Translations under genes and position numbers: made by a program
The notes under the pieces: generated by a model
The model's input: the letters and a program-made list of their open reading frames with translations, nothing else
Databases searched by the model: none
What the model was told of the DNA's origin: nothing
Origin: Bdellovibrionales bacterium
Lineage (GTDB): Bacteria > Bdellovibrionota > UBA1018 > CAIMNF01
NCBI GenBank assembly: GCA_018969905.1
Contig: JAGWXK010000001.1
Span: 4,587 to 68,586, forward strand
Reading direction: 5' to 3'
Length of the DNA: 64,000 bases
Shown here: in pieces, positions 18,421 to 37,294 of the stretch
Numbering within the stretch: position 1 is the first letter of the stretch
Layout: every line of letters starts with the position of its first letter

Positions 18421-18981
18421 CTATAGCTGCGCCTCGAGATCGACCACCTCGGGCGGGAGACCCTCAAGCTTTGCCGATACCCCCGGGGCCCACTGCGTGG
18501 GGTTATTCCTAAGGGAGTGAAGGCACATCGCACGCACCGAGGGTGGGAGCTCTGATCCCGCAGCACAGTCCGAAAAAAACCGACTTGCGCTCAAAAACTC
18601 CTCTGGCTTTTTCTCAAGGTACTCTTCGAGATCGCCTAGTGCGGCCCCTGCCTCAATGATCCTGGCAGGAGCTCCGTGAACTTCGTCCAACGGTAAGGAT
18701 CTTAATTCGGTTACGCTAGGAAGCGTACGTTTCACTTTTGAAATCTCGCCTAAAAGCTCTTCCGAATATCCATCATTAGGCAAATGTCCCGGAGCAAACT
18801 GTGCTACGCCGCCAACATTCGTCTCTACAAACCCTTCACTTGAAGCCTCTTCAGTCGTGACTGCTTCTTTTGCATCGATGGGTTGATCTACCACATTGGG
18901 CTGCTCGGGTTTATTTCCAGCGTTTAAATATACCAAGACACAGAGCCCGGAAATAAAGCCAACCAGAACTGAATTCTTCAA
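18421..18981 (-). CDS. hypothetical exported protein (186 aa)
   Basis: N-terminal signal/anchor (VLVGFISGLCVLVYLNA); 3-bp spacing to the upstream HEXXH gene implies one operon. Confidence 0.45.
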   Translation of the reverse strand: MKNSVLVGFISGLCVLVYLNAGNKPEQPNVVDQPIDAKEAVTTEEASSEGFVETNVGGVAQFAPGHLPNDGYSEELLGEISKVKRTLPSVTELRSLPLDEVHGAPARIIEAGAALGDLEEYLEKKPEEFLSASRFFSDCAAGSELPPSVRAMCLHSLRNNPTQWAPGVSAKLEGLPPEVVDLEAQL

Positions 18982-18983
18982 AA

Positions 18984-19970
18984 CTACTCCAAATCACCGA
19001 TCCGTTTTTTCTTAAAGGAAACAATTCTCTCGGGTTGATCACTCCAAGCCATCGCTCTCTGCGAGATGCCTTTGGAATTTATGAATGCCCTTAAAACACG
19101 AGATCTTGAGTCAGCTTCAATCGTCTTTAGGATCGTTTTCTCTTTGGTCCCGCATTCCGTGCAAGCGGCAATCAGAGTATTCAATACCTGAGCACCCACA
19201 GTATAGGGACCATTTAGGTTTTTATCACAAGCAGGATATCCTGCATAGGCATGACCCTCTGGACAAATCGCATGCATAAAGCCCAATGATTGCCCGTTTC
19301 CATCACTGTGCCTTGCTTCATGGAAAAGAGTTGATAGTCGGGATATGGAATTGGCTGGATGATCCTGAGTGTTGGGGTTTACTCGCATTCGCTCAAGAAA
19401 AAGACCTGAGCCAATCTGGATTACACCACTGCGTGGCGAAAGAATGGGGAAGAGGGATCCGTCAGTCCTCTGCAGAACGAGCAAAACACCATTTTGTTTT
19501 CCAAGCAAATACAAGCCGGCGCCAGTATTTGACATTACGATCACGGGATCGTGAGTGCCTCCGGAACCACCTCCCACTGGCTTTGGATTACCGCCCGCGA
19601 GGTCTGGAATCGGCAGGGTTTTTGGCTCGGGGTAGACGACCCTTCCTGACCCCACCAAAATGGATTTCTCCAAATCCATTCTCTCGGAGATGATCAGTGC
19701 CACTCTCTGACCCAGCCACTCACGAAGAACTTCCGGACTGATCGCGCGATCAATACCGAGGAGATTTTTTGTGACTTCATCCTTTTCATTGTGTCGAAAT
19801 TGGAGTCGATCGAGATAGGCCTGATCTAGCTCAATAGATCGAGCCTGGTCTTTTGGCACAGAATGATCGATTTCAATGGCCAGGGTAAATTGAATGGAAA
19901 TGAAGAACGTCACCAAAGAAAAGAAAACACCCAGCATAAAGCCTCCATCCCAGAAAACGGGATGGCGCAA
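18984..19970 (-). CDS. hypothetical membrane-anchored protein with an HEXXH motif (candidate zinc metallopeptidase)
   Basis: N-terminal TM (GVFFSLVTFFISIQFTLAI); FHEARH ... FMHAICPEGH gives an HEXXH followed by a possible third ligand; Gly-rich linker. Confidence 0.5.
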   Translation of the reverse strand: MRHPVFWDGGFMLGVFFSLVTFFISIQFTLAIEIDHSVPKDQARSIELDQAYLDRLQFRHNEKDEVTKNLLGIDRAISPEVLREWLGQRVALIISERMDLEKSILVGSGRVVYPEPKTLPIPDLAGGNPKPVGGGSGGTHDPVIVMSNTGAGLYLLGKQNGVLLVLQRTDGSLFPILSPRSGVIQIGSGLFLERMRVNPNTQDHPANSISRLSTLFHEARHSDGNGQSLGFMHAICPEGHAYAGYPACDKNLNGPYTVGAQVLNTLIAACTECGTKEKTILKTIEADSRSRVLRAFINSKGISQRAMAWSDQPERIVSFKKKRIGDLE

Positions 19971-20057: not shown

Positions 20058-20375
20058 TCACTTCTTTCGCGGTAGAAAATCGCTATGGACTGCAATAAAT
20101 CTCTTTACCGCAGTGTTTACGATCTCAGATTCACCGAACTTGGTGAATTCAGCCATTTTCTTTATGGTTTCAGCAACTTCCTTCTCAAGAGTGAGAGTGA
20201 TCTGGGCGGTAGTACCCTTCAATACATAATCTTCTTTCATAGTCCCTGGACAGTATTCATAATTCGCGAATCGGTCAATGGGTATCCAAAAGGATGCCCT
20301 GTCTAGATTTTTTACAGCTGTAGAGTACAAATCTTGGACATCAGGCTTAGTACCTATCCATGGCATTTGGGGCAT
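20058..20375 (-). CDS. small hypothetical protein with a ribbon-helix-helix-like C-terminus
   Basis: AQITLTLEKEVAETIKKMAEFTKFGESEIVNTAVKRFIA looks like a CopG/Arc RHH. I trimmed the start to the internal ATG (MPQMPW) because the longer ORF overlaps the divergent 701-aa gene. Confidence 0.35.
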   Translation of the reverse strand: MPQMPWIGTKPDVQDLYSTAVKNLDRASFWIPIDRFANYEYCPGTMKEDYVLKGTTAQITLTLEKEVAETIKKMAEFTKFGESEIVNTAVKRFIAVHSDFLPRKK

Positions 20376-20428
20376 GGCCCTAAACTTGCTTACATAGTTC
20401 TGAGAGATTTTTTTGATAGGAGAGTTGT

Positions 20429-22534
20429 ATGAAAAGAGCCATTTACAGTTCATTACTTTTAGTTGCGCTTTTGGGAGCGCCGCAAATCGGATTCGCTGGA
20501 CCAACAGACTGCCCAAAATTATCCGCCTTTGGAAAAGACTCAACAAAAACAGCCGACATCCAAGCTCTTCAACAGATTCTAAACTATTTGAATCCAAACC
20601 TAAATTTGGTGGAAGATGGCAATTTTAATACAGAAACTAAGAATGCTTTGATTCAGTTCCGTAATAAACACAAACTCAAAAACACGGGAAGCGGCGCTAC
20701 TTATCCAGCATATGTCTCCGAACCAGTAAAACAAAAGCTTGAGTCAGAATGGAAGAATAAGGCGGAGGCTGAAGCGAAGGCGGAGGCTGAAGCGAAGGCG
20801 CCGGCTGATGCGAAGGCGGAGGCTGAAGCGAAGGCGGAGGCTGAAGCGAAGGCGCCGGCTGAAGCGAAGGCGCCGGCTGAGGCGAAGGCGCCGGCTGAGG
20901 CGAAGGCGCCGGCTGAGGCGAAGGCGCCGGCTGTCATTACTTATCTAAATTCTGAGGATCTTGATGAACACGGATTAAGGCTTGAGTTTGTAGACTACAA
21001 TCTTGTTGTCTCAGGGTACCTTCCCAAAGAGTGCGCAAAGCTCCTCAAAATCGGCAACAAAGAAGTTTTCGGTGCTGAAAGCCCAGATTCCACAAGCGCG
21101 CTGGCCAGCGTAGAGGATCTCGAGAGCCGCTCTAAACGGGTCGGCATTCAAGTGAAGTTTCATGGAGATCAAAATGAAAAATCACTTGCTGAGTGCGTGG
21201 AACATCACAAGGACGGCGAGAGACAAAAATTAACACTTAAAAAGTATGTTGATCACTCCAATCAGTCGATGATCGCTGGACTTTTGGGTGAGGCTGATGA
21301 GTTCAGTGCCATTTCCCCAAGGGTTGCATCCCCAACCTTCAAAAAGCTCGAGCTCGCCATCGGCAACTGCCCTACCTGTGACCATAACCCGGATCAGGCG
21401 CGCGAACTTCTAAGCGAGCTGAATGGATTGGGCTCAGGCTTCCTCATCGGTACCCAGAAGGAACTCATTCGAAAATCCTTGAATCAAATCGAGGAAGGAA
21501 TAAAGAGTGCAAAATCCTTACATGAGCTGAAGATTCTTCAAGCTGAGCTATCGGACCTTGCGAAACGAATCGAGACACTAGCTCTCAGCGAAGCTGACAA
21601 GGAAGCTATGTTAACGGCGATCAGTGCCGGTATGGATTTGTTGCTTTCAGCAAATGAAAAGGTTTTAGCAGACTCGAAGAAAGCCTGTAGCGAGAAGCGT
21701 CAGGGCCGAAGCTTTTATTCAAGAAAGACTTGCGGCTCCGAATCTGACCATGCGGATTTCATCGCTTCCACGCATGAGGCGATCTCGAAACTCCCCGGGC
21801 TTGATGAAGCAAGTCGCGAAAGTGAACTCCGGGTCGCTTCAGAATTTGCTCCAGGCGGTCTCGGTCGCGTTGACTTCATTTCGCAATTTGATCCTGCACA
21901 CGAGGAGGTGGTGGATGCTCTGAATCAAGGACAGGCCGACCTTCAGTATCTCAGCATGAACGCTCAGCGATCTTGTGCTTGGCTCACTCCGGCAACCTTC
22001 GCAAGCTGCAATCAAGCAAGGTATGAATATCAGCAGACTCTTGAAACCTATCAGAGCCTGTCTCAGCGATACTCAAACCTTCAATCCACAACGATGTACG
22101 GCCAGAGTGCGTTCGGACCAAATGGACTCCAGTCCAACGGATTTCAGTACTCCACTTTCCCAATCAATGGTCAAATCCCTCAAAATTTCGGCCAAAATAA
22201 CGGATTCAACCAGGGAAATGCGTTCATGACGAATACAGCGTTCGGACCAAACTACGGAACAGCTTCGAACTTCGGAGTTGGGCAAACCAGTCCATTTGGC
22301 TCCAGTCAGTGGAATGGATTTCCGCAGCAAACAGGGTTTCAACAAAATGGAAGTCAATTTGGAGCTCAAGCCGGGAGTTCTCCGAACGGATTCAGTTACG
22401 CAACCTTCCCCTTGAGTGGAACTCCACAAAACGGGAACTTTGTCCAGCCCTCAAATGGGATGCCGAACTCGCAAAACTTGCCCGTCGCAATTCCCCTCGG
22501 AGGAAATATGAACTCCTGGGGACAATCGGGGTAA
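20429..22534 (+). CDS. secreted protein: signal peptide, putative peptidoglycan-binding domain, AEAKAP tandem repeats, helical Cys-containing middle domain, Q/N/G/F-rich C-terminal tail
   Basis: GGAGAG RBS; signal peptide MKRAIYSSLLLVALLGAPQIGFA; PG_binding-like segment (ADIQALQQILNYLNPNLNLVEDGNFNTETKNALIQFRNKH); (A/P)EAKA repeats; about 160-aa NGF/FGP/QN-rich tail. Confidence 0.7.
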   Translation: MKRAIYSSLLLVALLGAPQIGFAGPTDCPKLSAFGKDSTKTADIQALQQILNYLNPNLNLVEDGNFNTETKNALIQFRNKHKLKNTGSGATYPAYVSEPVKQKLESEWKNKAEAEAKAEAEAKAPADAKAEAEAKAEAEAKAPAEAKAPAEAKAPAEAKAPAEAKAPAVITYLNSEDLDEHGLRLEFVDYNLVVSGYLPKECAKLLKIGNKEVFGAESPDSTSALASVEDLESRSKRVGIQVKFHGDQNEKSLAECVEHHKDGERQKLTLKKYVDHSNQSMIAGLLGEADEFSAISPRVASPTFKKLELAIGNCPTCDHNPDQARELLSELNGLGSGFLIGTQKELIRKSLNQIEEGIKSAKSLHELKILQAELSDLAKRIETLALSEADKEAMLTAISAGMDLLLSANEKVLADSKKACSEKRQGRSFYSRKTCGSESDHADFIASTHEAISKLPGLDEASRESELRVASEFAPGGLGRVDFISQFDPAHEEVVDALNQGQADLQYLSMNAQRSCAWLTPATFASCNQARYEYQQTLETYQSLSQRYSNLQSTTMYGQSAFGPNGLQSNGFQYSTFPINGQIPQNFGQNNGFNQGNAFMTNTAFGPNYGTASNFGVGQTSPFGSSQWNGFPQQTGFQQNGSQFGAQAGSSPNGFSYATFPLSGTPQNGNFVQPSNGMPNSQNLPVAIPLGGNMNSWGQSG
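20759..20933 (+). repeat. in-frame 18-bp tandem repeat, about 9.7 copies (aaggcg[g/c][a/c]ggctga[a/g]gcg), encoding KAEAEA/KAPAEA
   Basis: Directly visible periodicity in the sequence. Confidence 0.9.
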
Positions 22535-22574
22535 CGGCGAGTCTCTTAACTCTATTTAAATAAAAACTCTCAAA

Positions 22575-22603
22575 ACAGAGCGGGCAACCGCTCTGTTTTT
22601 TTA
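22575..22603 (+). terminator. rho-independent terminator of the 701-aa gene
   Basis: acagagcgg-gcaa-ccgctctgt hairpin followed by TTTTTTT. Confidence 0.65.
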
Positions 22604-22684
22604 TTTGACGGAAATCTGACGAACCGTTATCCCTTAATCATAGACATCAGTTGTTGCTTACATCAGTTTTGAAAGGGGATTTTA

Positions 22685-22903
22685 ATGGCAACTCAGGTAA
22701 AAGGCACCGTGAAGTGGTTCAACGACGCGAAAGGTTTCGGTTTCGTACAAACCGAGTCGGTAGACGGAGACATTTTCGTTCATTATAGCGCGATTCAGGG
22801 AGATGGGTTCAAAACTCTTTCCGAAGGTCAAGCAGTGCAGTTCGAATTGGTTTCTGGTCCAAAGGGCCCACAAGCATACAACGTAACCAAGTTCGAGAAT
22901 TAG
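22685..22903 (+). CDS. cspA: cold-shock protein, CspA family
   Basis: [16 protein letters not shown] (RNP1) and DIFVHYS (RNP2). Confidence 0.95.
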
Positions 22904-22927: not shown

Positions 22928-22958
22928 AAAGCCCCGTGTTCAACACGGGGCTTTTTTT
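22928..22958. terminator. bidirectional rho-independent terminator (cspA on +, aldehyde dehydrogenase on -)
   Basis: aaagccccgtg-ttca-acacggggc hairpin with T-runs on both strands. Confidence 0.65.
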
Positions 22959-24354
22959 ATTTCTCAGCGCACTCCAAAGCCAACTGTCCGAGAAGACGAT
23001 GTCCCAGCCGGCCATGATTGCCGCTACGCTTTCGGGCAATCGCCCCCTTCCACGGATCAAGCTCAAAGAGGCTAGCACCTAAGGTTACAAGACCGACCTT
23101 TTGTGCAAGCACCAACTGTTCGGGACTTGAGGGGTTTCCAAAAAAAGAACAAGCAAGGCCATAAGTCAAATCATCAAATAAACCCAGGAGCTCGTCAAAG
23201 TCGGCATAAGATACCATCGTGAGGTGAGGGCCTAAAACCTCAGTCTGGAAGCTTTCCATTTTCCTCATTTGCCCGGGTCTGATCTCTCGAAAAGCCGCGA
23301 GAGTTGGGGTGGAAAAACAAGAGTGCGTGCGACTCGAATCGCGATTGCCCTTCAGCTCGAATCTGGCTCCTTCCCGCTCAAGCACATTGATAAACTTCAA
23401 ATACCGTTCAACACGAGCCTGGTCTTGAAGGACCCCGATCCAATTCGCTCCACCTTCATCAGTTCCCGATGAAGATCGCAGTGCTTTTGACAGACCTTCA
23501 AGTGCATCGTTAAAATGTCGCGCCTGTACGAAGAGCAGGGGCGTACTCAGACAGTGCTGACCCGCGCCTAAAAAAGCATTTTCCAAGATGGTTCCACAGA
23601 TCTCCTCAGTGATCGGCTTATTCAGCACGATGGGATTTTTCGAGCCCAGAAACAAAAGGAGCTCCTTTGACGGCGAGGCGAGCGTGTCCTGCCGAATCCT
23701 CATTCCCGTTTCATAGCCACCCTGAAAAATGATCACATCAACACCATCATTGCAGGCAAGCCTTCGGCCGGTCTCTTGATCGCCCACCAACACCTGTACG
23801 GATTCGAGGCTTCCGCCAAGCGATCGCAGTTCCCGGACCCACTCCAACACGATTCGCGAGACTCTCTCGGAAGGCTTGAGAATGACCTCATTGCCAACTA
23901 GAAGATTCGCGAGAATAAACTGGGTTGAGTGGAAAATCGGCCAAATCGAAGAGGCAATGACAGCACACACACCCCTTGGAACATATTCTGATGGTCGGGT
24001 GGCATTTTCCCGAAGGGAATCAAGATAAGATATCAAAGCATCCATCTCCAGGTCGAAATCGCGCTTCGTTCGGGCGGACTCCTCCTGCACAGTTTTAAGG
24101 AGCCGGTTACGGACTCGAAGGAGCAAAACCCTAATGCGTTCGATCTCGGTGTCGGGCATGGAATGGAGTCCATTGCGGATTCGAAATTCGAAAGACTCAC
24201 GGGCAAGCCCGACCGCAAGCGGAATCTCAGGGAATCGGAACTCAATGCATGCCGTCTGTAGCTTTTGGTTCATTGGAGAAAACCGGTGAATCACACCGCT
24301 GGGAGGACCAGGCGTAGTGGGGTTTTGCCTCAAGATACTTCCCAATTTTTCCAC
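22957..24354 (-). CDS. NAD(P)-dependent aldehyde dehydrogenase family protein
   Basis: ALDH fold with catalytic Cys context FLGAGQHCLST and Glu context ELLLFLGSKNPIV. Confidence 0.8.
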   Translation of the reverse strand: MEKLGSILRQNPTTPGPPSGVIHRFSPMNQKLQTACIEFRFPEIPLAVGLARESFEFRIRNGLHSMPDTEIERIRVLLLRVRNRLLKTVQEESARTKRDFDLEMDALISYLDSLRENATRPSEYVPRGVCAVIASSIWPIFHSTQFILANLLVGNEVILKPSERVSRIVLEWVRELRSLGGSLESVQVLVGDQETGRRLACNDGVDVIIFQGGYETGMRIRQDTLASPSKELLLFLGSKNPIVLNKPITEEICGTILENAFLGAGQHCLSTPLLFVQARHFNDALEGLSKALRSSSGTDEGGANWIGVLQDQARVERYLKFINVLEREGARFELKGNRDSSRTHSCFSTPTLAAFREIRPGQMRKMESFQTEVLGPHLTMVSYADFDELLGLFDDLTYGLACSFFGNPSSPEQLVLAQKVGLVTLGASLFELDPWKGAIARKRSGNHGRLGHRLLGQLALECAEK

Positions 24355-24357
24355 GAT

Positions 24358-25821
24358 TCAACCCTGACTGAGGCGGACCATCAAGTCACGATAGACGGCA
24401 ATCGCAGTCTCCAACTCGCTCCACCGAACGGCCTCATTTGGTCCTTTAGGAAGATGGTCCACTAATCCGCAGCCGATCGCTGAGACCGGAAAACCCGCCC
24501 GGTGAAAAAGTCCCGCATCACTCAGATAGTTGGTACAAATTTCTTTTGATTCCGACGGTCCTATCGCTCCCGGGACAAGATAGTCTCTTTGAATTGAAAA
24601 ATGAAAATGGGGATATTTCTCGGAAGTCCTCTTGACTGAATCGCGCCAGGATGATTCCAAAGCGACCAAATCCACTTCGGGTAAAGTCCTCAATTCGAAA
24701 ACCACTCTCATTTTTCCGTTGGCGGTGGTTAGAATTTTCACTAGCGCACCGGAATTCTCGGGGTGTGAGAAGGATGGATCATTGTTTCGATTCAGGTTGG
24801 CCAGAAAAAGCTTCCACTCGTGATCCAACTCAAGGACCACTTCCACGAGCTCGGACGGTATGAATCGGGTCACGGAATCCGTCATTCCTGCAAAGTCCAC
24901 GCGAAAAAATCGGGCCTGATCTTCGTCACCAATCCGCTCCCGCAGGAATTGCTTGAAATCCTCAAACTGAAACGAGGTGAGCGCAATTCTTGCTGCCGCC
25001 AGGTCGGGGTTGGTTCCTGATGCGTTTTTCACTTCAATGGCCGACCACTGAAAATCGAAGCCGCTTTCTGTGGCCTGCAGCAACAAATCAATCAGGAGTT
25101 CATAGGCATTGATTGCATTTTTTGGTGTCGAAAAGTCAACCCCGAGTCCATAAGCGGTGATGCTCAAACTTCTGTTGTAGCCACGGGAATCCCGATCGCG
25201 AATCGAGGAGTCAAGATCCACCGAGAAGGACACCTGCCCCGTTGCCCTGCTTTGACTCTTCAGGCCAGTAGGCGCAAAGGTGTGGACCGTCTTCGGATTC
25301 ACCGCAAGCGATTCGATCAAAAACCGGCTTCCCATCATGCCTGAGTGTGATGCGCAGGTTCCCACAAGATAAATCGGACTGCGAGTGCGCTTGTCCACTA
25401 GATCAATGGCCGCAAATATTCTGCACAGAAAATCGAGTTTCCCCTGTACGGCTCCAGCGCCGACAATTCCTTGGTCATTCACAATCGGAGCTTGAGGATT
25501 GCCCTGAGTGGCCGTCCAAAGGTGCGGAAGATTTCCGGTTGATACATCCAGCGGATTCACAAAAAGATGCCCTCTACGCGTCGTTCGATCCACAAGTGGA
25601 TCCGAGACAAATCCCAACAGATTTGCTTGCCGTTTGGAAAGCAGGTCCGAGGAATGACTTACGGGTTGCACCGAAGTCTTCATCCCGTAGTCATGCATTG
25701 CCGCCTGAAGGTATCTTACCAGTTCCTCATTGCCGGACTCGGCATGAGATGGAATGCTCAAAATTCGTTTCGCGTGTTCTTTGAATTTATCAAAACTCAA
25801 CATCTTGTTTTTGAATATCAA
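24358..25821 (-). CDS. M20 family metallopeptidase (ArgE/DapE-like deacylase)
   Basis: C-terminal M20 signature AIGCGLVDHLPKGPNEAVRWSELETAIAVYRDLM; 3-bp spacing to the aldehyde dehydrogenase gene implies one operon. Confidence 0.65.
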   Translation of the reverse strand: MIFKNKMLSFDKFKEHAKRILSIPSHAESGNEELVRYLQAAMHDYGMKTSVQPVSHSSDLLSKRQANLLGFVSDPLVDRTTRRGHLFVNPLDVSTGNLPHLWTATQGNPQAPIVNDQGIVGAGAVQGKLDFLCRIFAAIDLVDKRTRSPIYLVGTCASHSGMMGSRFLIESLAVNPKTVHTFAPTGLKSQSRATGQVSFSVDLDSSIRDRDSRGYNRSLSITAYGLGVDFSTPKNAINAYELLIDLLLQATESGFDFQWSAIEVKNASGTNPDLAAARIALTSFQFEDFKQFLRERIGDEDQARFFRVDFAGMTDSVTRFIPSELVEVVLELDHEWKLFLANLNRNNDPSFSHPENSGALVKILTTANGKMRVVFELRTLPEVDLVALESSWRDSVKRTSEKYPHFHFSIQRDYLVPGAIGPSESKEICTNYLSDAGLFHRAGFPVSAIGCGLVDHLPKGPNEAVRWSELETAIAVYRDLMVRLSQG

Positions 25822-26575: not shown

Positions 26576-27226
26576 ATGAAAGCGCTGAAATTTGGTTTTT
26601 CCCTCATTCTGCTCGCGTGCTCATGCCAGATTTTCTTGGGATGTGCGGGAAAGACCATCAATGAAAATGACCCCAAAGAGTTATACGAGGATGCGGACGA
26701 GGATGTAAAAAACGACCGCTTTCTGCTCGCTCTCGACAAGTTGCGCGTAATCAAGAGTAAGTTTTCCTATTCCAGTTATGGAGCGCTCTCACAACTCAGA
26801 ATTGGTGACGTTTATTTCCTTCAGGAGTCATACCCTGAGGCTGCATCAGCTTACGAAACATTCGTCGAACTTTATCCGAAGCACGAGCGCGCACCCTATG
26901 CGCTATTCCGTGCGGGCGAATCCTTTTTCAACGACATACCCTCCACGATCGCCAGAGACTTGAGATCTGCCGAAAGTGCTGTCGCCTCTTTTTCCTTGTA
27001 CTTGCGACGGTATCCCAGCGGTGAACATTCGATTGCGGCCTTGGACCTCAAGAAAAAGGCATACAACAAGCTCGCCGAAAAGGAGATGGAGATTGCGGAG
27101 TTTTACATCAAGAGAAAAAAGCCTGCCTCTGCTAAATCCCGTCTTGAAAAGATCCTTAATCTCTACACCGAATCCGACCTGGCTTCCAAAGCCCGGACGT
27201 TAATGGAGAAGCTTCCCTCTGAATGA
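26576..27226 (+). CDS. bamD: outer membrane protein assembly factor BamD (lipoprotein)
   Basis: AGGAG RBS; lipobox FLGC; TPR-like repeats with BamD-like YALFRAGESFF. Confidence 0.75.
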   Translation: MKALKFGFSLILLACSCQIFLGCAGKTINENDPKELYEDADEDVKNDRFLLALDKLRVIKSKFSYSSYGALSQLRIGDVYFLQESYPEAASAYETFVELYPKHERAPYALFRAGESFFNDIPSTIARDLRSAESAVASFSLYLRRYPSGEHSIAALDLKKKAYNKLAEKEMEIAEFYIKRKKPASAKSRLEKILNLYTESDLASKARTLMEKLPSE

Positions 27227-27230
27227 GCCC

Positions 27231-27929
27231 ATGATTCCACCAAAAGAAATTCAAAAAAACATTCAGCAAAAGAAGTACCACATCGCTGAAGATCAGCTGA
27301 AGAAGGGCCTCACACTTGAGCCAGACAACGCCGACTTTTACTATCTCCGCGGGTTGCTGCGCTCCTATCAAGGGCGCCTGGTTGACTCGATTGAGGATTT
27401 GAAGCGAGCTCTTTTCATAGAGCCTAAACATACCGATTCCGCAGTTTGCCTGAGCATCATTCTGAATGACATCGGCAGATATGATGAGGCGAAAAAGGTT
27501 TTCGAGCAGGCAAACCAAAGTGTGTTTCTGAAACAACTCGGAGATGACCAACAGATCGATCGACGTTTTGCAGTCAAACATTTTGAAATGGGTGATCTTT
27601 ACTTCCGTTATCGCCGATTCGACGAGGCGATTGAGGAATACAATAAGGCCATAATGCTTGACCCTGGATCGATCGATATGCGCGTGAAGAGAGCCAAAGC
27701 TTTCGCTAAAAAAGGCTTTATTACTCGTGCCATTCAGGATTTACAGCAATTAAAATTGGAACGTCCCACTGATCTTGCTGTGCGCGTGCAACTAGGCCTT
27801 CTTCACTACAGTCAGGGCAACGTACTCGATGCGGAGCTTGAATGGGAATCCGTTTTGGAGCTTGACCCTGTCCACCGTGAAGCTATCGCTTACCTGGAGC
27901 TGATCAAATCAGCTCGACCCTCGTCGTAA
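27231..27929 (+). CDS. tetratricopeptide repeat protein
   Basis: Multiple TPR motifs (ADFYYLRGLLRSYQGRLVDSIEDLKRAL, etc.). Confidence 0.7.
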   Translation: MIPPKEIQKNIQQKKYHIAEDQLKKGLTLEPDNADFYYLRGLLRSYQGRLVDSIEDLKRALFIEPKHTDSAVCLSIILNDIGRYDEAKKVFEQANQSVFLKQLGDDQQIDRRFAVKHFEMGDLYFRYRRFDEAIEEYNKAIMLDPGSIDMRVKRAKAFAKKGFITRAIQDLQQLKLERPTDLAVRVQLGLLHYSQGNVLDAELEWESVLELDPVHREAIAYLELIKSARPSS

Positions 27930-28443
27930 GCGGAAGCGTTCCAACAGAAACCACAGAGCGATCATTGCTTTTAACAACTTCGCTGGATGCACTTCTGACC
28001 GAAAGGATCTGGGCGCGAAGTTCCTTGAACATTGGGTGCTTTATTGGCTGATCATTCTCTTGAAGAACCACCTGCTTGGCGACTCGATCACGGACGTTGA
28101 TCACCAAAGGTGCCTTCAGATTTGCGGTCATTTCTGGAAGTTGATTCGGAATGGTGAGGATGGTGAAGACACTCGCCTCTTGGATCGAGGAAAGCCTGAG
28201 CTCACGAAGCTCTGCGGCCGAAAGCCTGACAATGTAGTTGGATTTGAAGATTCTCGGTTCAAGGACCGGAAATGCAAGACGAGGATTGGAGAGGGACTGA
28301 AGCCAGAGAATCAAGGTTTCATCCCCTGGATCAACCAAGCAAAAATTCTGATCATCCGGAAAACCAAGTATTCCGCTCGGGATCGAAATGATCTCGTCTG
28401 TGGAAACCTCTATTTGGCCAAAACGTCCTGTTTGTACGACCAC
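27904..28443 (-). CDS. fliW: flagellar assembly factor FliW
   Basis: FGQIEVSTDEIISIPSGILGFPD is the canonical FliW N-terminus; GTG start with GGAGG RBS. Confidence 0.82.
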   Translation of the reverse strand: MVVQTGRFGQIEVSTDEIISIPSGILGFPDDQNFCLVDPGDETLILWLQSLSNPRLAFPVLEPRIFKSNYIVRLSAAELRELRLSSIQEASVFTILTIPNQLPEMTANLKAPLVINVRDRVAKQVVLQENDQPIKHPMFKELRAQILSVRSASSEVVKSNDRSVVSVGTLPLTTRVELI

Positions 28444-28572
28444 AACAACCTCCAGGAATGAAATCCACTCCCGAAACTAGGATAATCCGAGTTTTGTTAT
28501 GCGAGCAAGGAACTTTCTTACCTAGACGGGCAAAATGACAAATTTATGACATCGAGAATGACGCGATGGGTC

Positions 28573-28797
28573 TTAATCTTCAAATGCCTTTGTGACATCT
28601 TCAAGATTACCGGTAGCGTTTCCCGCCACCTTATTCTGATCCTGGATCTGGGAATAAACCTCTTCCCTGTGAATTTTTGTTTCTTTAGGTGCCTGAATTC
28701 CCAGGCGGACCTGCTTGCCTTTGATTTGAACGACAGTGATCTTGATGTGATCATCAATCGCAATACTTTCACCCAATTTTCGGGTCAGCACTAACAT
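28573..28797 (-). CDS. csrA: carbon storage regulator CsrA
   Basis: MLVLTRKLGESIAIDDHIKITVVQIKGKQVRLGIQAPKETKIHREEVY. Confidence 0.92.
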   Translation of the reverse strand: MLVLTRKLGESIAIDDHIKITVVQIKGKQVRLGIQAPKETKIHREEVYSQIQDQNKVAGNATGNLEDVTKAFED

Positions 28798-28880
28798 GAA
28801 CAACCTCCATGTACTGAACAACGAAGTAATCCGTTACCCAAGGGGTTTGTTAGCGTATTCAGGTCAGATTCACAAGGGAA

Positions 28881-29852
28881 TTATCTCAGAAAGTCCAAAA
28901 GTGTCGGTTGAATCAGGTGTTTTGAGCTGGCAAGACTGCTTTTGAAAACGGTCTCTTCCTTGGCGAGATCACTCACAACCTGGGTCATGTCGGCATCTTC
29001 AATGGAAGAGGTTAACTGAGCATTGGTCACATTGTGCCGGTCAAGGGCGGTCATGTTTCCTTCGATGCTCTGGATTCTTGCTCCAATCTTGGCCCTCGTT
29101 GAAATCACCTTGCCCAAAAGATCATCGAAAGAATCCAAAGTCCCCCGAATGGTTTCAATGTCCCCGGTGAGCAGGCCAGTTCGAAGCGCCTTGAGCTGCT
29201 GAAAAAGATTCACATTTTGGGGACCAGCAGGAACAGTGGCAAGGCGACGGTCCGCTTGTTCTTCGGACCCCGACTTGAGTCGATGCTTGTCTGTCGATCC
29301 ATCCGGATGAGTGTTGAAGACCTCGTATCCCGGTACGTTTGCTCCAATGAACACCTCACGCCCCACTTCGATCATGATCTCCCCGTCATCCCCACGATAA
29401 TTTCCATCGCCATCAACAGGGGCGGTGGTGCTCTTGAAACCGCCGAAGATATATCGATCTCCGATCCTTCTATTTCCAGTGGCTACTGCACGTTGAAAAA
29501 GCTGACTCACTTCCTCACTCACTCCGAGTCGAGATTCAGGAGTGGAGCTCGCATTACTGGACTGGTTAATGGCAATCTCTTTGGCGCGCATGACGATCTC
29601 GCTAATCTCATCCAATGCATGATCCGTGTTATCCAAGAAAGCTTGAGCGAGTTTTGCGTTCACCTGAAATTGTTCGTTATTCACTTTGTCCGTCCTCACT
29701 TCCAGAACTTTGGCCGCACCCACGGGATCGTCAGAAGGGCGGTTCAGCTTCTTCAGGGTCGCAGACTCCATCTGAAGATTCTCCATCCGTCCTCTCGAGC
29801 GGCTGATACTGTCCCGTACGACTCCGTAATTCGTGTTATCGGTTACCCTCAT
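28881..29852 (-). CDS. flgL: flagellar hook-associated protein 3 FlgL
   Basis: Flagellin-like N helix (MRVTDNTNYGVVRDSISRSRGRMENLQ) and C helix; follows flgK. Confidence 0.82.
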   Translation of the reverse strand: MRVTDNTNYGVVRDSISRSRGRMENLQMESATLKKLNRPSDDPVGAAKVLEVRTDKVNNEQFQVNAKLAQAFLDNTDHALDEISEIVMRAKEIAINQSSNASSTPESRLGVSEEVSQLFQRAVATGNRRIGDRYIFGGFKSTTAPVDGDGNYRGDDGEIMIEVGREVFIGANVPGYEVFNTHPDGSTDKHRLKSGSEEQADRRLATVPAGPQNVNLFQQLKALRTGLLTGDIETIRGTLDSFDDLLGKVISTRAKIGARIQSIEGNMTALDRHNVTNAQLTSSIEDADMTQVVSDLAKEETVFKSSLASSKHLIQPTLLDFLR

Positions 29853-29858
29853 CTATCC

Positions 29859-31292
29859 TCAACCCCTCAGCTTCAAAACCGTATCCATCATCTCATCAGC
29901 AACCCTAATCACGCGGGCTGACGCATCGAAGGCGTGCTGAAACTGCATAAGATTGGTCGTCTCTTCATCAATCGAAACTCCCGAGACCTGATCACGCACC
30001 CGATTGAGTTGAGTAATGATGCTTTGCTGTTGCCCAAGTGCCTCTTTGTTCCGGGAACTCGCAACTCCCACCTCGGATACGATGGAGTTGTAAAAGTCAT
30101 CCACGGTGGAGTGCCCCCCGTTCATGAGATGGTGATTTTGAAGGTTTGCGATCGCAAGCGCATTTCGATTGTCACTTGGGGCATTCGCTTGAAGAGCCAC
30201 CGCAATATTGTTTACATTGCCAAGGATCTCACCGGAGAGAGCCAGTCGGTCTGCAGCCCCTAGAACCTGATTGGGTGTTTCAAAAAATCGTACTCCGGTC
30301 TTTCCGTCCAAAGTGAAGCCTTTTTCATGGAGCTCATTCACGGACCTGGAAATTGCATATGCAAGTTCGTCGAGCCTCCCCAAAACCTGGTTCACAGCTC
30401 GATCGCGAGTCTCGATTTGAGCACCTATTCTGCCACCCTTAAAGTGGTCGGTAATGAAATTCTTGCTTTGCGAGCTCCTTGAAATCTGAAGCGAATTCTC
30501 GACCGAACCACTTGTGGAATCCGCTCCGTGGCGCGCAAGAGAGTAGTCCGAAGTCACAACCCCGGTCACCAACGGGCCAACCCCCTTGATATCCACATTG
30601 AGGTTTCCTTGATTGTCTTTGTGAGCGGTGATGTCGACAAGGGAGTTCATCTTCTTCACTACAAGATCTCGCCGATCGCGCAGATCATTGGCGGCATCGG
30701 TACCCTGAACCTCCGCCTGAACGATTTTTCGATTCAATTCCGCAAGTTCACCCGCAAGGGTATTCAGCTCCCGGACGCTTCCTTCGATACGATTGTCGAT
30801 GTGGCTGCGAATGCTCTCAACCTCGCCGCGGAGTCGTTTGAAGTCCCGAATCATTGCCTGAGAAGATTCTCGTACGGACTGACGAATCGCTTCAGATGTC
30901 GGTTCATTGGAGAGCTTTCTAAAGTCGTTATGAAATCTTGCAATGAGACGGTTCAAGCCATCGCCGTTCATCTCATTGAAAACATCCTCCACCTGGTTCA
31001 AAAAGACCTGTTTTTCTTCATGAAATGCGGTATCCCGCGAGCCCTCTCGCAGCTGTTTTTCGAGGTACTCATCATTGATTCGCTCAACCCGTGCAATGCG
31101 GGAACCCTCACCGACGAAGTGTCCACCACTCTGGCCTGCAGCTTGCTTTGCTACGGCAGCCTCAGATTGCACCCTTTGCCTGGAAAAGCCTTCACTGCTT
31201 GCATTCGCAATGTTATGCCCCGATGTCGCAATGCCAGCCTTGGCGGTGCTCATCCCGGATTTTCCGGTTTGCAGGACATTCAACAGTGCCAT
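29859..31292 (-). CDS. flgK: flagellar hook-associated protein 1 FlgK
   Basis: N-terminus MALLNVLQTGKSGMSTAKAGIATSGHNIANASSEGFSRQ, conserved C-terminal helix. Confidence 0.9.
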   Translation of the reverse strand: MALLNVLQTGKSGMSTAKAGIATSGHNIANASSEGFSRQRVQSEAAVAKQAAGQSGGHFVGEGSRIARVERINDEYLEKQLREGSRDTAFHEEKQVFLNQVEDVFNEMNGDGLNRLIARFHNDFRKLSNEPTSEAIRQSVRESSQAMIRDFKRLRGEVESIRSHIDNRIEGSVRELNTLAGELAELNRKIVQAEVQGTDAANDLRDRRDLVVKKMNSLVDITAHKDNQGNLNVDIKGVGPLVTGVVTSDYSLARHGADSTSGSVENSLQISRSSQSKNFITDHFKGGRIGAQIETRDRAVNQVLGRLDELAYAISRSVNELHEKGFTLDGKTGVRFFETPNQVLGAADRLALSGEILGNVNNIAVALQANAPSDNRNALAIANLQNHHLMNGGHSTVDDFYNSIVSEVGVASSRNKEALGQQQSIITQLNRVRDQVSGVSIDEETTNLMQFQHAFDASARVIRVADEMMDTVLKLRG

Positions 31293-31294
31293 CC

Positions 31295-31858
31295 CTATAC
31301 CTCTTTCGAAATCAATCGCGGGCCATGGGGATTTCCCGCGGCCTGGTTCTTTTGCCCCAGCTGGTTGTAGGTTTTTCCTTGGTGTGTGGTTTCACCGAAG
31401 ATATTCCCCTTCATGTTGTTGATGTGCTTTAATGACTGGCTGATCAGACTACCGTTGACCTGATTCTGTTTTTTAACCCTCTCGACAAGAATCACCAAAG
31501 CATTCAAGTCGGCTTGTAGCCTGGATGCAAGCTCCGGGCTCTTCACCTGGTAGTGAATGATCAATTCCTTGAGGGTCGGATTCGATTCGTCTGGTAAAGA
31601 CTCGAAACTCTTTAACTCCAGGCTAAGGGCCTGACGCTCCAACTCCGCCTGATGGATCCAATGGAGCAATGCCTCCTTGTTGGCAACAGCCTCATAGGTC
31701 GCTTTCGTATCGGCCTGGGTAATCGCCTCGTGTTCATGCTTCACGATTTCATAAAGCTGCCGATGCAGTCCAATGAGGCCCTGCAAACTTTCGTGCAGTC
31801 TGTTTCCCGGACTGTTTTTTTGATCCTGTTCTTTTTCCATGATCGTCCTCACCCGCAT
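31295..31858 (-). CDS. flgN: FlgN-like flagellar export chaperone (tentative)
   Basis: Helical protein with no motif; its position between flgM and flgK is the classic flgN slot. Confidence 0.45.
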   Translation of the reverse strand: MRVRTIMEKEQDQKNSPGNRLHESLQGLIGLHRQLYEIVKHEHEAITQADTKATYEAVANKEALLHWIHQAELERQALSLELKSFESLPDESNPTLKELIIHYQVKSPELASRLQADLNALVILVERVKKQNQVNGSLISQSLKHINNMKGNIFGETTHQGKTYNQLGQKNQAAGNPHGPRLISKEV

Positions 31859-31886
31859 CCTGCTCGGAGGTTGAAGTTAACTGCTC

Positions 31887-32213
31887 TCAGGCTCCTGCCA
31901 TTCGCAAATGGTCATCCACCAGTCGGTCTGCGATCGCGTCGGCGCTGACATTGTAGGTCTTATTTTGAATTTTTTCCCGAAGTTCAGCGATCTTTGCTTC
32001 CCGCAAATCAGGGGCCTCTCCGGCCACCTGCTTGGCCTTGGCCATATCACGAGCTTTGACAGAAATGTCAGCATTCACCGAATCTGTTCGGACCGGAGCC
32101 GACACGCTTCCTGCCCTGCCCTCCTGGGACTGCGGCTTTGTTTTTTCAGTTTTTTTGGTGGCTTGGGCTTCGGAACCCTGGACTGGGGAACTATTCGCTG
32201 GATTGATCCTCAT
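31887..32213 (-). CDS. flgM: anti-sigma-28 factor FlgM
   Basis: C-terminal FlgM motif AKIAELREKIQNKTYNVSADAIADRLV; start set at MRINP (GGAGG RBS), which removes the Arg-rich upstream extension. Confidence 0.7.
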   Translation of the reverse strand: MRINPANSSPVQGSEAQATKKTEKTKPQSQEGRAGSVSAPVRTDSVNADISVKARDMAKAKQVAGEAPDLREAKIAELREKIQNKTYNVSADAIADRLVDDHLRMAGA

Positions 32214-32565
32214 GTGTACCTCCTGTACGCACCGGGCCCGCGTCCGGGCCCGTGTTCTCATTGTACTTTGGATCCGGCATCGAGCGCAACCAATAATCAA
32301 TGATCTGCCCGGAAAGACCAATTGCATTTTGCCTCGCGGAGGACTCCGCATATTCCTGGTCAAGCATTCCCTCGTAAATCTCGCTACCGGGATTTCGCAA
32401 AGAAAACTCGGACTTCTGAACAGTTCCTCTCATGGCCTTCATCATTTCCGAGGTGAAGATAGCCTCTAGGCCACGTGCGGCCTCTCGCATCTCAGCGGTG
32501 ATCCTTGGATCGTCAGAATTTTGCTGTTGAATGGCGGGTCTGGGAATAACCGGAGGGAGCTTCAT
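32191..32565 (-). CDS. flgJ: flagellar rod-binding protein (FlgJ N-terminal domain only, no muramidase domain)
   Basis: LEAIFTSEMMKAMRGT is the FlgJ_N rod-binding motif; GGAGGGGG RBS. Confidence 0.62.
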   Translation of the reverse strand: MKLPPVIPRPAIQQQNSDDPRITAEMREAARGLEAIFTSEMMKAMRGTVQKSEFSLRNPGSEIYEGMLDQEYAESSARQNAIGLSGQIIDYWLRSMPDPKYNENTGPDAGPVRTGGTHEDQSSE

Positions 32566-32765
32566 TTCAAGCCCCCTCCGGTTTCGAGCGCAAACAGATC
32601 TGAACGGGAACCTCTTGTTCCGGCGTAGGTTTGATGAATTGAAAAGAATTGAACGGACCCACCATCCTAGCAGATCGTTGCTTCATTTCTGTTTCCTGGA
32701 TCATCGTACCTTTTTTCATCCTTCCGTGGATCTCCGCCTGTTCTTCCTCCGTCTGCACAAGACCT

Positions 32766-33854
32766 TTAAATGAATTCAAGCTCCGCCTGCAAGGCGCCCG
32801 TCGCCTTGATGGTTTGAAAAATTGCGGTCATATCCCTCGGTGCCACACCAAGAGCATTCAGTAGTTTGACAAGATCTGCGACCGTGGCATTTGCATTGAT
32901 CAGGCCTCGATCCGCGTCGGCTCGTGCTCCCGGCCTGAATTCCATAAGTCGCTCGGGCTTGGACTGACCCTTAACTTGAATCGACAGGTCTCCATGCGAG
33001 ATTGCAACCGGGGCAATACTAACCCGATCGCCCATGACCACGGTTCCCGTTCGTTCATTCAATACCACTTTTGCCTTGGAATCTGTAACTACCCGTATGT
33101 TCTCAATACGCGCCATCAAATCCACCGTGTTTCCGTCATAATTGAAAGGAACAACAATATCTACAGTCGCACTGTCCCTCGCAGTTGCAAACTTTCCACC
33201 CAGCTCCGAATTGACCAAGGCGACCGCCCGAGCTGCCGTGGTGAAGTCGGGATTGTTCAAGGACAAACGAAAGCTCTTCTTGCCCGCAAAGTTCGTATCG
33301 ACGTCTTTTTCAACGGATGCTCCCGAAACGATTCGTCCGACTGTCGGGAATGCCGCCTTTCCATCGGTAAGTGTCCCCAACGTTACCTGTCCTTGAGCAA
33401 CTGCATAGACTTGCTGGTCCCCTGCGCGGAGAGGTGTCACGAGGAGAGTTCCTCCCTCCAGTGATGCAGCATCACCTATGGACGAAACCGTAACATCGAT
33501 CTGTGTTCCAGATCTTGAGAATGCGGGCAACTTTGCAGTCACAATCACTGCTGCCGCATTCTTTGATTTGACCGCCGCATTTTTCTCAACGTCGAGACCC
33601 AGTTTTCCGAAAAGCCGTCCAAGAGACTTGGCGGTGACATCTGTACTGGAGTCTCCGGTACCCTTCAAACCAACAACAATGCCGTATCCAATCAGGATGT
33701 TTTCCCGCACTCCCTTTATGGACGCAATATCCTTCAGCCTTGCCCCTACGGTGGTCGATGCCTGCGATTCACTCGCGAAGACACCCCCAAAAAAGAGGAT
33801 GAATAACCAGAGGATCATGATGAATTTACCTTCCAACGCGAATTTTATACTCAT
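32766..33854 (-). CDS. flgI: flagellar P-ring protein FlgI
   Basis: Signal peptide then RLKDIASIKGVRENILIGYGIVVGLKGTGD. Confidence 0.9.
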   Translation of the reverse strand: MSIKFALEGKFIMILWLFILFFGGVFASESQASTTVGARLKDIASIKGVRENILIGYGIVVGLKGTGDSSTDVTAKSLGRLFGKLGLDVEKNAAVKSKNAAAVIVTAKLPAFSRSGTQIDVTVSSIGDAASLEGGTLLVTPLRAGDQQVYAVAQGQVTLGTLTDGKAAFPTVGRIVSGASVEKDVDTNFAGKKSFRLSLNNPDFTTAARAVALVNSELGGKFATARDSATVDIVVPFNYDGNTVDLMARIENIRVVTDSKAKVVLNERTGTVVMGDRVSIAPVAISHGDLSIQVKGQSKPERLMEFRPGARADADRGLINANATVADLVKLLNALGVAPRDMTAIFQTIKATGALQAELEFI

Positions 33855-34719
33855 AGAGTTTCCCCGAGCTAATTAAGTCTTTTTCATCGAAGTCCGCAAC
33901 GGGAGCGACTGCAACCAGTGCGATGGACTTGGAAGCACCTCGATAAAGAACCCTCTTTACGGCACGAATTTTGAAGTTTCCATTCTGATAGCGATCCACA
34001 ATTTCCGCCCGTAGCTCCTCCGACGGTGATAGTCCTATTGCTTTACTCAGATCGACCTGGGACCACCTTACCGCCCGCTCCATTCTAAGTTTCACCTCTT
34101 CGGCCTCGGTGGACCGCAAATCCTCGGACGCAACGTTCCTGTACGCCTTTAGATCCTCATCATTCCGTGCACCCTCCGTGTTTTTCAGGTAGAGGGCCAT
34201 TTCAACTTCCTGCTCAGCGGGTGTAAGACTTTTTTTCACCTCCTCGGCAATCTGACGAATGAAGTTATCATCAATCTTTACAGAGACGATGTCTCCGATC
34301 GCATGGACTTTGCCCTTAGTGAAAAAATAGTTCCCATCGTTTTCATTTGCCCAAAGGGAGCCGTCACTCGGGGCGTTGTCATAAAAATCAGCACGTGTGG
34401 CCCTGTCTCCCCGAATGAACTTCGAGGGTGCGACACCTCTTCCTGCTTCGATTCTCCCCTTTACCGTCTCTTCCGCGGGATCCAGGATTGATTCCTCCCG
34501 CGCCGGACTCTCGCGGTTGGAATTCAAGGCCGGACTTCTTGATTGCCTTGACTCACCCGTAGAAGTCCCCCACCCGCCGCGGCGATTTTCACTCGAAGGA
34601 TTTGAGTCACCATAGGTGAGCGCATTATAGTCAATGGCCTTCTCCGCCTTGAAGGGATTAAGGCTCGCACAACCAGCCAGAAAAAGGGTACCAAACAGTG
34701 CTCCACTCCGGATTTTCAA
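33826..34719 (-). CDS. flgH: flagellar L-ring lipoprotein FlgH
   Basis: Lipobox LAGC; GSLWANENDGNYFFTKGKVHAIGDIVSVKIDDN matches the FlgH core. Confidence 0.78.
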   Translation of the reverse strand: MKIRSGALFGTLFLAGCASLNPFKAEKAIDYNALTYGDSNPSSENRRGGWGTSTGESRQSRSPALNSNRESPAREESILDPAEETVKGRIEAGRGVAPSKFIRGDRATRADFYDNAPSDGSLWANENDGNYFFTKGKVHAIGDIVSVKIDDNFIRQIAEEVKKSLTPAEQEVEMALYLKNTEGARNDEDLKAYRNVASEDLRSTEAEEVKLRMERAVRWSQVDLSKAIGLSPSEELRAEIVDRYQNGNFKIRAVKRVLYRGASKSIALVAVAPVADFDEKDLISSGKLYEYKIRVGR

Positions 34720-35465: not shown

Positions 35466-35490
35466 GACCCGTCCTTGAGTCTTTTTTAAA

Positions 35491-36276: not shown

Positions 36277-36289
36277 CCTTCAGTTCTCC

Positions 36290-37105: not shown

Positions 37106-37165
37106 TCTGTCTCCTCTACCCCTTTCTTCCTGAAAGGGAACGCCTCTCTTATTGTAATGGGGAGA

Positions 37166-37181
37166 GGGCCCCTGTTGCAAA
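37166..37181 (-). promoter_or_regulatory. candidate sigma54 (-24/-12) promoter for flgF-flgG
   Basis: Minus strand reads TGGTTTTGCCTTTGCA, i.e. GG-N10-GC with a TTGCA -12 element, about 60 bp upstream of the flgF ATG. Confidence 0.3.
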
Positions 37182-37294
37182 GGCAAAACCAAAACAACAA
37201 ACAAACTCCACGATTTCGGTTGACGACAATTTTATGGCTGCGTTTTTCTTCTTTAGACACACAACCCTTGATATGGTGTCGGCGGAGAGTTTTA

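Follow-up and report, generated by a model that had tools for sequence, protein, structure and literature searches.

The gene described here occupies positions 20429–22534 of a 64,000-nucleotide stretch of contig JAGWXK010000001.1; the whole stretch is referred to as the window, and coordinates are those of its forward strand unless the minus strand is named. The gene starts with ATG, is the only long open reading frame (ORF) at its position and encodes a protein of 701 residues, termed here the tail protein, which comprises a signal-like N-terminus, a PG_binding_1 domain, an Ala/Glu/Lys/Pro spacer, a cysteine-bearing core and a long tail free of charged residues. It belongs to a real, conserved and lineage-specific protein family that combines export-type sequence features, a novel core, a tail conserved in composition, a short C-terminal motif and a sigma-54-type promoter. 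A ribosome-binding site read from the sequence (AGGAG, 20418–20422) lies 6 nt 5' of the ATG, and AGGAGAG recurs in 9 of the 11 upstream sequences compared, that of the window included. Beyond the stop codon, an intrinsic terminator (22572–22606) consists of a hairpin at 22572–22599, with a 12-bp stem and a 4-nt loop, and a T-run. A first reading of the letters by a model (the original prediction) had described the ORF, the ribosome-binding site, the terminator and the segments of the protein, and had placed all of them correctly. The exact 701-residue protein is not on record elsewhere, and the window holds neither a paralogue of it nor a second ORF with a charge-free C-terminus.

Residues 548–701 (22070–22531) form a tail of 154 residues rich in Asn, Gln, Gly, Ser, Pro and aromatic residues, without a single Asp, Glu, Lys or Arg. 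In a comparison of the 51 ORFs of 150 aa or more in the window, the longest charge-free run measures 154 residues in this tail and 29 in the runner-up, and the Q+N+G+F fraction per 150 aa reaches 0.55 in the tail protein against 0.33 in the next highest. The tail is thus far outside the range of the other ORFs, as the original prediction had supposed in calling its composition unusual. Residues 541–701 contain 16% Gly, 14% Gln, 14% Asn, 12% Ser, 9% Phe and 8% Pro, and six FG and five GF dipeptides fall within residues 548–701; overall, the tail has 28% N+Q, 14% aromatic residues and 2% Met. The DNA encoding it contains no tandem repeat. The tail has no match in Pfam, NCBIfam or the PDB and no confident predicted fold, and a word-indexed search with the tail alone returned no match; a known Gly/Asn-rich spacer or a defined fold, which had been named as a possible trivial explanation, does not account for it.

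Close to its end the tail carries the motif P-V-A-I-P-L (residues 685–690, 22481–22498), a conserved stretch within an otherwise unalignable region. Almost every sequence in the full-length family alignment has a proline at the position of P689, and A-[IVM]-P-[LIVM] occurs within the last 70 residues of 20 of the 38 family members, with close variants in several more. A C-terminal sorting signal of the sortase or exosortase type (LPXTG, PEP-CTERM, GlyGly-CTERM or MYXO-CTERM) was considered and rejected: P-V-A-I-P-L is followed by GGNMNSWGQSG, with no hydrophobic segment (maximum Kyte–Doolittle (KD) value 0.94), no basic tail and no match to an NCBIfam/TIGRFAM model.

Only two full-length relatives, P0001 (54% identity) and P0002 (51%), were found among 5.8 billion clustered proteins, and an exhaustive search of 1.84 billion representatives with a profile of the core region found 37 proteins. 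Family counts refer to 38 members or sequences, and tail statistics to the 33 members whose core match reaches the end of the core. A word-indexed search with a 25-sequence profile returned three proteins only, and two scans of metagenome contigs returned no relatives. All 30 family clusters that were looked up derive from metagenomes or metagenome-assembled genomes (MAGs) and none has a functional name; nr contains a single one, a partial sequence labelled 'hypothetical protein'. Because all 30 are metagenomic and unnamed, and because the core has no relative in Pfam, NCBIfam or the PDB, the family appears to be undescribed. P0001, whose contig belongs to a 'Bdellovibrionales bacterium' MAG, is the sole member with a named source organism. 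Searches of the literature turned up no account of this family, nor of any exported bacterial protein of FG-like character.

What the family conserves in its tail is a property, not a sequence. The tail is present in all 33 members, with a length of 61–181 aa (mean 114), and cannot be aligned. Charged residues account for 4.2% of the tails, compared with 28.6% of the core and about 26% of the pooled N-terminal linkers, which are rich in Ala, Lys, Pro, Thr and Glu; for aromatic residues the corresponding values are 11.9%, 5.6% and about 3%. N+Q makes up 24% of the tails, G+S+P+T 35%, and proline 8–9%. The presence in the same proteins of a charged Pro/Ala spacer and an uncharged aromatic tail argues that the tail exceeds a spacer role.

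In P0001 and P0002, 10–12 copies of the pentapeptide PNGFA replace much of the tail of the type found in the window. These (PNGFA)n runs are encoded by 15-nt arrays (L001, 9633–9812; L002, 4171–4323) that are 97–98% homogeneous within each genome, and the synonymous codons differ between the genomes (CCA-AAC-GGG-TTC-GCA as opposed to the unit AAC-GGC-TTC-GCA-CCG). Since the same peptide unit is written in different codons, the peptide, and not the DNA, appears to be maintained or selected. The arrays suggest either concerted evolution or independent expansion of one peptide unit. Elsewhere in the family the tails of P0031, P0032, P0033 and P0057 are rich in Met (up to 25%, for example as NSPFMMNGMQQMN repeats), which partly takes the place of aromatics. 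A copper-binding Met-rich tail was rejected, as Met-rich tails occur in some members only and the window tail has 2% Met.

The core domain (residues 169–556, 20933–22096) defines the family. The AlphaFold model of the core, built from a 25-sequence alignment, has a mean predicted local distance difference test (pLDDT) score of 85.8 and a predicted TM-score (pTM) of 0.69, and consists of a beta-rich eight-stranded subdomain (approximately residues 169–300) followed by a bundle of long helices (approximately 302–558). The original prediction of a helical middle domain with paired cysteines was therefore right about the cysteine pairs, which are conserved, and incomplete about the fold, in which a beta-rich part precedes the helices. 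The window protein has nine cysteines, six of which are invariant or nearly so across the family: C314, C317, C516 and C527 are invariant in the 38 sequences, and C202 and C256 nearly invariant. The first two form a CxxC motif (C314-P-T-C317, 21368–21379) at the start of the helical part, a candidate disulfide, redox or metal site. The conserved cysteine pairs fit an oxidising, extracytoplasmic location of the protein. By sequence, the core has no match in the PDB or NCBIfam, and Pfam matches in the family are limited to PG_binding_1 and low-complexity models. Foldseek gave no match to the core at E <= 0.001, and the fold searches returned only a generic resemblance to helical repeats. The full-length AlphaFold model, made from three sequences, is of poor quality, with a pLDDT of 43.9, and only its PG-binding region and its tail are drawn on here.

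The N-terminus is laid out like a type-I signal peptide (residues 1–24, 20429–20500), with MKR, a 14-residue hydrophobic stretch and the sequence GFA before a predicted cleavage in front of G (MKRAIYSSLLLVALLGAPQIGFA|G). The 15-aa KD mean peaks at 2.0 within the first 30 residues, and a basic and then hydrophobic N-terminus is found in nearly all full-length family members. Downstream of the signal peptide, the 19-aa KD mean tops out at 0.94 and no transmembrane (TM) helix is apparent. A lipoprotein was ruled out, as there is no lipobox and Cys28 is not conserved. Together with the conserved cysteine pairs, the signal-like N-terminus agrees with the secreted character that had been suggested at first reading and that is likewise judged here from the sequence.

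Residues 42–87 (20552–20689) match PG_binding_1 (PF01471, E = 2.3e-5) over model positions 3–47 of 57, with 24.9 bits and therefore by a narrow margin over the cut-off of 23. AlphaFold models this region as two helices with pLDDT 81–87. The domain is found in 4 of the 38 members (three besides the window protein), with a best E of 8.7e-7, and sacculus anchoring therefore cannot be the general mechanism of the family. The peptidoglycan anchoring that had been proposed for the window protein thus keeps a domain match in its favour, and as judged by domain content it is a predicted trait of the clade of the window protein alone.

An AEAKAP/AEAKAE spacer follows (residues ~111–168, 20759–20933). 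The array described in the original prediction was recovered at residues 111–168 as an 18-nt DNA tandem repeat (Tandem Repeats Finder: period 18, 9.7 copies, 94% matches). It is missing from both closest orthologues, which have unrelated low-complexity linkers at that place, and is a recent 18-nt expansion private to the lineage of the window. The spacer matches DUF1388 (Pfam), and TolA models match residues 101–166 below their cut-offs. Homology to TolA was rejected, as TIGR02794 and NF007065 score 27.8 bits against 59.45 and 23 bits against 213, and only the Ala/Glu/Lys repeat is matched. The array does resemble the Ala/Glu/Lys helical spacer of TolA domain II, TonB-type spacers and DUF1388; the window protein differs from TolA in having neither its N-terminal anchor nor its C-terminal domain.

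The sigma-54 consensus at −24/−12 is TGGCAC-N5-TTGCW. A matching element, TGGCCCTAAACTTGCT, lies upstream of the gene at 20375–20390, with the GG-to-GC spacing of the consensus, and was absent from the original account of the locus. Nowhere else in the 64-kb window is TGGCNC-N5-TTGCW matched exactly (0.25 matches expected), and relaxed patterns match elsewhere at chance level only. Of 11 related loci fetched, 10 are distinct, as L001 and L003 represent the same gene. TGGCCC-N5-TTGC occurs without variation in the window and the 10 distinct loci alike, ending 31–41 nt before the ATG, and the exact pattern has one other match in the fetched related loci. We therefore propose that the tail-protein gene is controlled by sigma-54 from this predicted promoter. 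Sigma-54 control of the bacterial exterior is a reported theme (PMC3162934), which an element of this type upstream of an envelope-type gene would fit.

Two further conserved elements accompany the promoter. In 10 of 11 sequences (not in L007), a (T)GAGAGA box (20399–20408 in the window) follows the −12 element by 8–14 nt, close to where transcription would be expected to begin; it may be part of the leader or a site for a regulator. Further upstream, 10 of the 15 columns of the intergenic block GGTCAATGGGTATCC (20273–20287, not assigned to a strand) are invariant in a five-locus alignment. This block may serve as a site for an activator or as an operator, or may supply the −35 region (TTGACC, minus strand) of the promoter of the divergent gene. 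The intergenic region was searched for inverted-repeat operators, and none was found.

The divergent gene (20058–20240, minus strand) encodes 60 aa and is a conserved upstream partner of the tail-protein gene. The mechanical ORF list gives a 179-aa ORF starting with TTG (20058–20597, minus strand) that extends over the start of the tail-protein gene; the orthologous loci show that the real gene is its last 60 codons. A 60/61-aa gene is called at the equivalent position across orthologous loci, wherever the contig reaches far enough, and one contig edge holds only a 23-aa start. The protein is 93–97% identical in the closest loci and 70–73% in distant ones. Its predicted strand and two helices are compatible with a ribbon-helix-helix (RHH) pattern, and all model scores are below threshold (RHH_1, 13.2 against 20.5 bits; RHH_7, 14.2 against 27; DUF6364, 17.3 against 27.3; CopG structures, E = 1). 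The small RHH-like gene of the original prediction is thus borne out as a conserved gene, and its assignment to RHH is possible at most.

The window and the loci of P0001 and P0002 share one gene order: ETF, Fe-S oxidoreductase, two hypotheticals, the 60-aa gene, the tail-protein gene, cspA, aldehyde dehydrogenase and M20 peptidase. In every context fetched, the tail-protein gene is directly upstream of cspA. Because of this constant placement, the family genes, which lie on Bdellovibrionales-like metagenomic contigs, are positional orthologues of one lineage-specific gene. At the closest locus, the tail protein is 54% identical, compared with 95% for the Fe-S protein, 93% for the 60-aa protein, 94% for CspA, 83% for the M20 peptidase and 43% for aldehyde dehydrogenase. 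Most neighbours there are 79–95% identical, and aldehyde dehydrogenase alone falls below the tail protein in the two closest loci. In distant loci the tail protein is 30–33% identical and its neighbours 61–92% (M20, 61–65%). In two of these distant loci, a trypsin-family protease gene lies between the 60-aa gene and the tail-protein gene (L004, 115–1275; L009, 1080–2255; both on the minus strand).

The closest physical likeness of the tail is to the FG domains of nucleoporins. Cohesive NQ-rich FG domains contain about 27% N+Q and few charges, as charges counteract cohesion, and they need Phe (Labokha et al., 2013; PMC3553378). With 28% N+Q, no charge and 9% Phe (residues 541–701), the tail agrees with these values, and the FG-like composition claimed at first reading is upheld. 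The tail resembles yeast Nsp1 (residues 1–175) and the GLFG domains of Nup100 and Nup116 in its FG or GF every 5–10 residues, its N/Q/S/T/G spacers, an N+Q content of about 27–28%, an almost complete lack of charge, predicted disorder and Phe as the candidate cohesive residue. The motif context differs, with NGF, NFG and (PNGFA)n in the window family and GLFG or FxFG in nucleoporins. Unlike nucleoporins, the tail protein is bacterial, has a Sec-type signal, lacks a pore scaffold, transport receptors and sequence homology, and joins its tail to a cysteine-bearing core and, in the window clade, also to a PG-binding domain. Membership among the FG nucleoporins was therefore rejected for this bacterial protein from a Bdellovibrionales-type neighbourhood, and a physical analogy alone remains.

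Other extracytoplasmic disordered regions offer partial parallels. In Bacillus subtilis, those of PBP1 and RsgI act independently of sequence, and spacer-type regions of this kind have a surplus of charged and polar residues and a deficit of aromatic ones (Brunet et al., 2022; PMC9732909). By prediction, the tail protein shares with PBP1 and RsgI a disordered C-terminal tail of about 120–160 residues on an exported wall protein, a conserved composition and a proposed contact with the peptidoglycan mesh. It differs in that the window tail is free of charge and 14% aromatic, the carrier domains are unrelated and the host is presumably Gram-negative. CsgF of the Escherichia coli curli system, which forms a cell-surface condensate, is also extracytoplasmic, and its phase separation reportedly requires Phe in a disordered segment (PMC10133297). 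CsgF is small and part of the CsgG secretion machine, with no homology to the tail protein, no PG-binding module and no long N/Q/G tail. Extracytoplasmic disordered regions have recently been shown to matter in PBP1/RsgI and CsgF, and those described are charged spacers or short segments. Here, a whole orthologous family bears a long, uncharged, aromatic-patterned tail that is kept over deep divergence, is rebuilt by repeat expansion and stands under a conserved sigma-54-type promoter.

Elastomeric proteins include those with elastin-like VPGXG pentapeptides, abductin and high-molecular-weight (HMW) glutenin. By analogy, they resemble the family in their short Pro/Gly repeats with aromatic residues or Met, as in the (PNGFA)n of the orthologues and the G/M/F/Q-rich tails of other members, and in glutenin subunits the repeat region likewise adjoins a cysteine-containing folded domain. 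Homology is not expected, and the window tail differs in being non-repetitive in its DNA.

Our favoured, though tentative, reading is that the tail is a multivalent cohesive or adhesive sticker-spacer region with a docking motif, anchored to peptidoglycan in the window clade. It is favoured by the FG-domain-like composition, which is unlike that of PBP1 and RsgI, and by the position of the tail on the compact side of the Uversky charge-hydropathy line (0.429 against a boundary of 0.413). The protein would then be a sigma-54-controlled, Sec-exported, soluble envelope protein of a small and fast-evolving family from metagenomic contigs. In the window clade, the PG_binding_1 module may fix it to the sacculus, and the repeat-born Ala/Glu/Lys/Pro spacer may keep the disulfide-stabilised beta and alpha core off the anchor point. 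The tail of about 150 residues would be disordered and uncharged, with Phe or Tyr (FG/GF) stickers per 5–10 residues amid N/Q/G/S/P spacers. It could enter multivalent cohesion with itself, with other copies or with glycan, and the P-x-A-[IV]-P-L motif may dock on a conserved partner. That the protein is exported, that its tail is disordered and cohesive, that it has a partner and where in the cell it lies we infer from the features of the sequence.

Several observations weigh against the cohesive sticker-spacer reading. The low pLDDT of the tail (about 25 in AlphaFold) derives from a three-sequence alignment. Aromatics are more evenly spaced than in shuffles in 26 of the 33 tails (Stouffer Z −3.95), which favours the reading, but the members are not independent, internal repeats inflate the signal, and in the window tail alone the effect is not significant for F/Y/W (p = 0.26; 0.02 with Met). 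The tail-protein gene is the fastest or second-fastest evolving gene in every neighbourhood compared, which could reflect relaxed constraint. The core fold has no known relative and gives no functional clue. No sigma-54 activator (a GAFTGA-type enhancer-binding ATPase) is encoded in the window, and no partner protein of the tail protein was identified.

The main alternative is that the tail is a passive tether. It would be flexible and non-sticky and would serve only to carry the P-x-A-[IV]-P-L motif to a partner, across the periplasm or through the peptidoglycan mesh, so that cohesion would play no part. LpoB with its disordered linker, and TonB and TolA with their spacers, are analogues of such a tether. 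This explanation, which is possible but somewhat unlikely, accounts for the short near-C-terminal motif as the sole alignable element of the tail and for a tail length held at 61–181 aa while the sequence drifts, and sequence-independent extracytoplasmic disordered regions are known from PBP1 and RsgI (PMC9732909). However, the documented spacers are charged and poor in aromatics (PMC9732909), as are the family's own linkers, and the tails have the opposite composition. The tendency of aromatics to even spacing also speaks against a passive tether, as does the lack of the strict motif in 18 of the 38 members.

A second alternative is that the protein is released, into prey or onto surfaces, with the tail serving as an adhesive or sealant at a predator–prey interface. 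The rapid evolution of the gene, at rates typical of proteins facing other organisms, would suit such a role, and so would a soluble protein that is predicted to be exported, has no lipobox or TM anchor and in most members lacks a PG-binding domain. The only named organism is the Bdellovibrionales MAG, and a trypsin-like protease gene adjoins the tail-protein gene in two loci. We nevertheless consider release doubtful. No secretion signal beyond Sec was found, it is not established that these uncultured organisms live as predators, and the PG-binding domain, which could attach to the organism's own wall or to that of prey, does not tell the two apart.

The tail had also been called prion-like, and this description is not sustained. 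The Michelitsch–Weissman prion criterion is at least 30 Q/N among 80 consecutive residues. The window tail reaches a maximum of 26, below this classical cut-off, and the repeats of the orthologues are proline-rich. A Q/N-rich prion-like region or functional amyloid of the curli or yeast-prion type, forming cross-beta fibres outside the cytoplasm, is accordingly very unlikely, even though the tail combines 28% N+Q with zero charge and has Pro-free stretches of up to 22 residues, and although NQ-rich FG spacers are capable of amyloid-like beta-sheets between chains (PMC3553378). Across the family, 1 of 33 tails reaches at least 30 Q/N per 80 residues. Proline makes up 8–9% of the tails and, in the two closest orthologues, every fifth residue over 50–60 residues; this placement of proline by (PNGFA)x10–12 argues against an amyloid core. 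Membership in the known functional amyloids (curli CsgA/CsgB, Fap) was rejected, as there is no match to an amyloid family model and the window tail has no curli-like long imperfect repeats.

Finally, an artefactual or junk tail, whether from a frameshift, from misassembly or from the neutral run-on of DNA prone to slippage, is largely refuted and highly improbable: low-complexity DNA does expand via slippage and the exact protein has no other record, but the frame stays open through to a C-terminal motif common to the orthologues, all 33 members reaching the core end have a tail of 61–181 aa with the same bias, the window tail has no DNA tandem repeat, and the terminator follows the stop codon.

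If the cohesive sticker-spacer reading holds, a further and unlikely extension of it would be an extracytoplasmic counterpart of the nucleoporin FG phase. A sigma-54-induced protein, fixed to peptidoglycan or docked through its motif, would condense through its tail into a cohesive gel in the periplasm or at a predator–prey junction, where it might, for instance, selectively plug or seal an opening in the wall or membrane. Such a gel, if it exists, would give bacteria their first envelope structure based on FG-type cohesion. A tail that is cohesive in vivo would provide a tractable bacterial model for a condensate or hydrogel in an oxidising, ATP-free compartment, and the family might reveal a new envelope or predation structure.

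The remaining neighbourhood comprises genes on both sides of the pair. The two minus-strand hypotheticals at 18984–19970 and 18421–18981, downstream of the 60-aa gene, both have a hydrophobic, signal-like N-terminal segment and no Pfam or NCBIfam match. They are 59–63% identical to their counterparts in the closest locus (fast evolving), and are present in some orthologous loci and missing from at least one (the P0068 contig). The product of the former (328 aa) contains LFHEARHSDG, an HExxH motif, and is rich in cysteine in its C-terminal part. The other side (22685–22903 on the plus strand, 22957–25821 on the minus strand and the region of approximately 27160–37230) has housekeeping genes, namely cspA, aldehyde dehydrogenase and M20 peptidase; the family-model scan of window ORFs covered those up to 26567, and no link was seen between these downstream genes and the tail protein. 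The related loci continue with BamD-like and tetratricopeptide repeat (TPR) genes and then a FliW-CsrA-flagellin-FlgK cluster. A flagellar component was rejected, as the flagellar genes are 5–6 kb off, with unrelated genes between and no common promoter signal. In some related loci AstA or arginase is encoded downstream, which suggests arginine catabolism.

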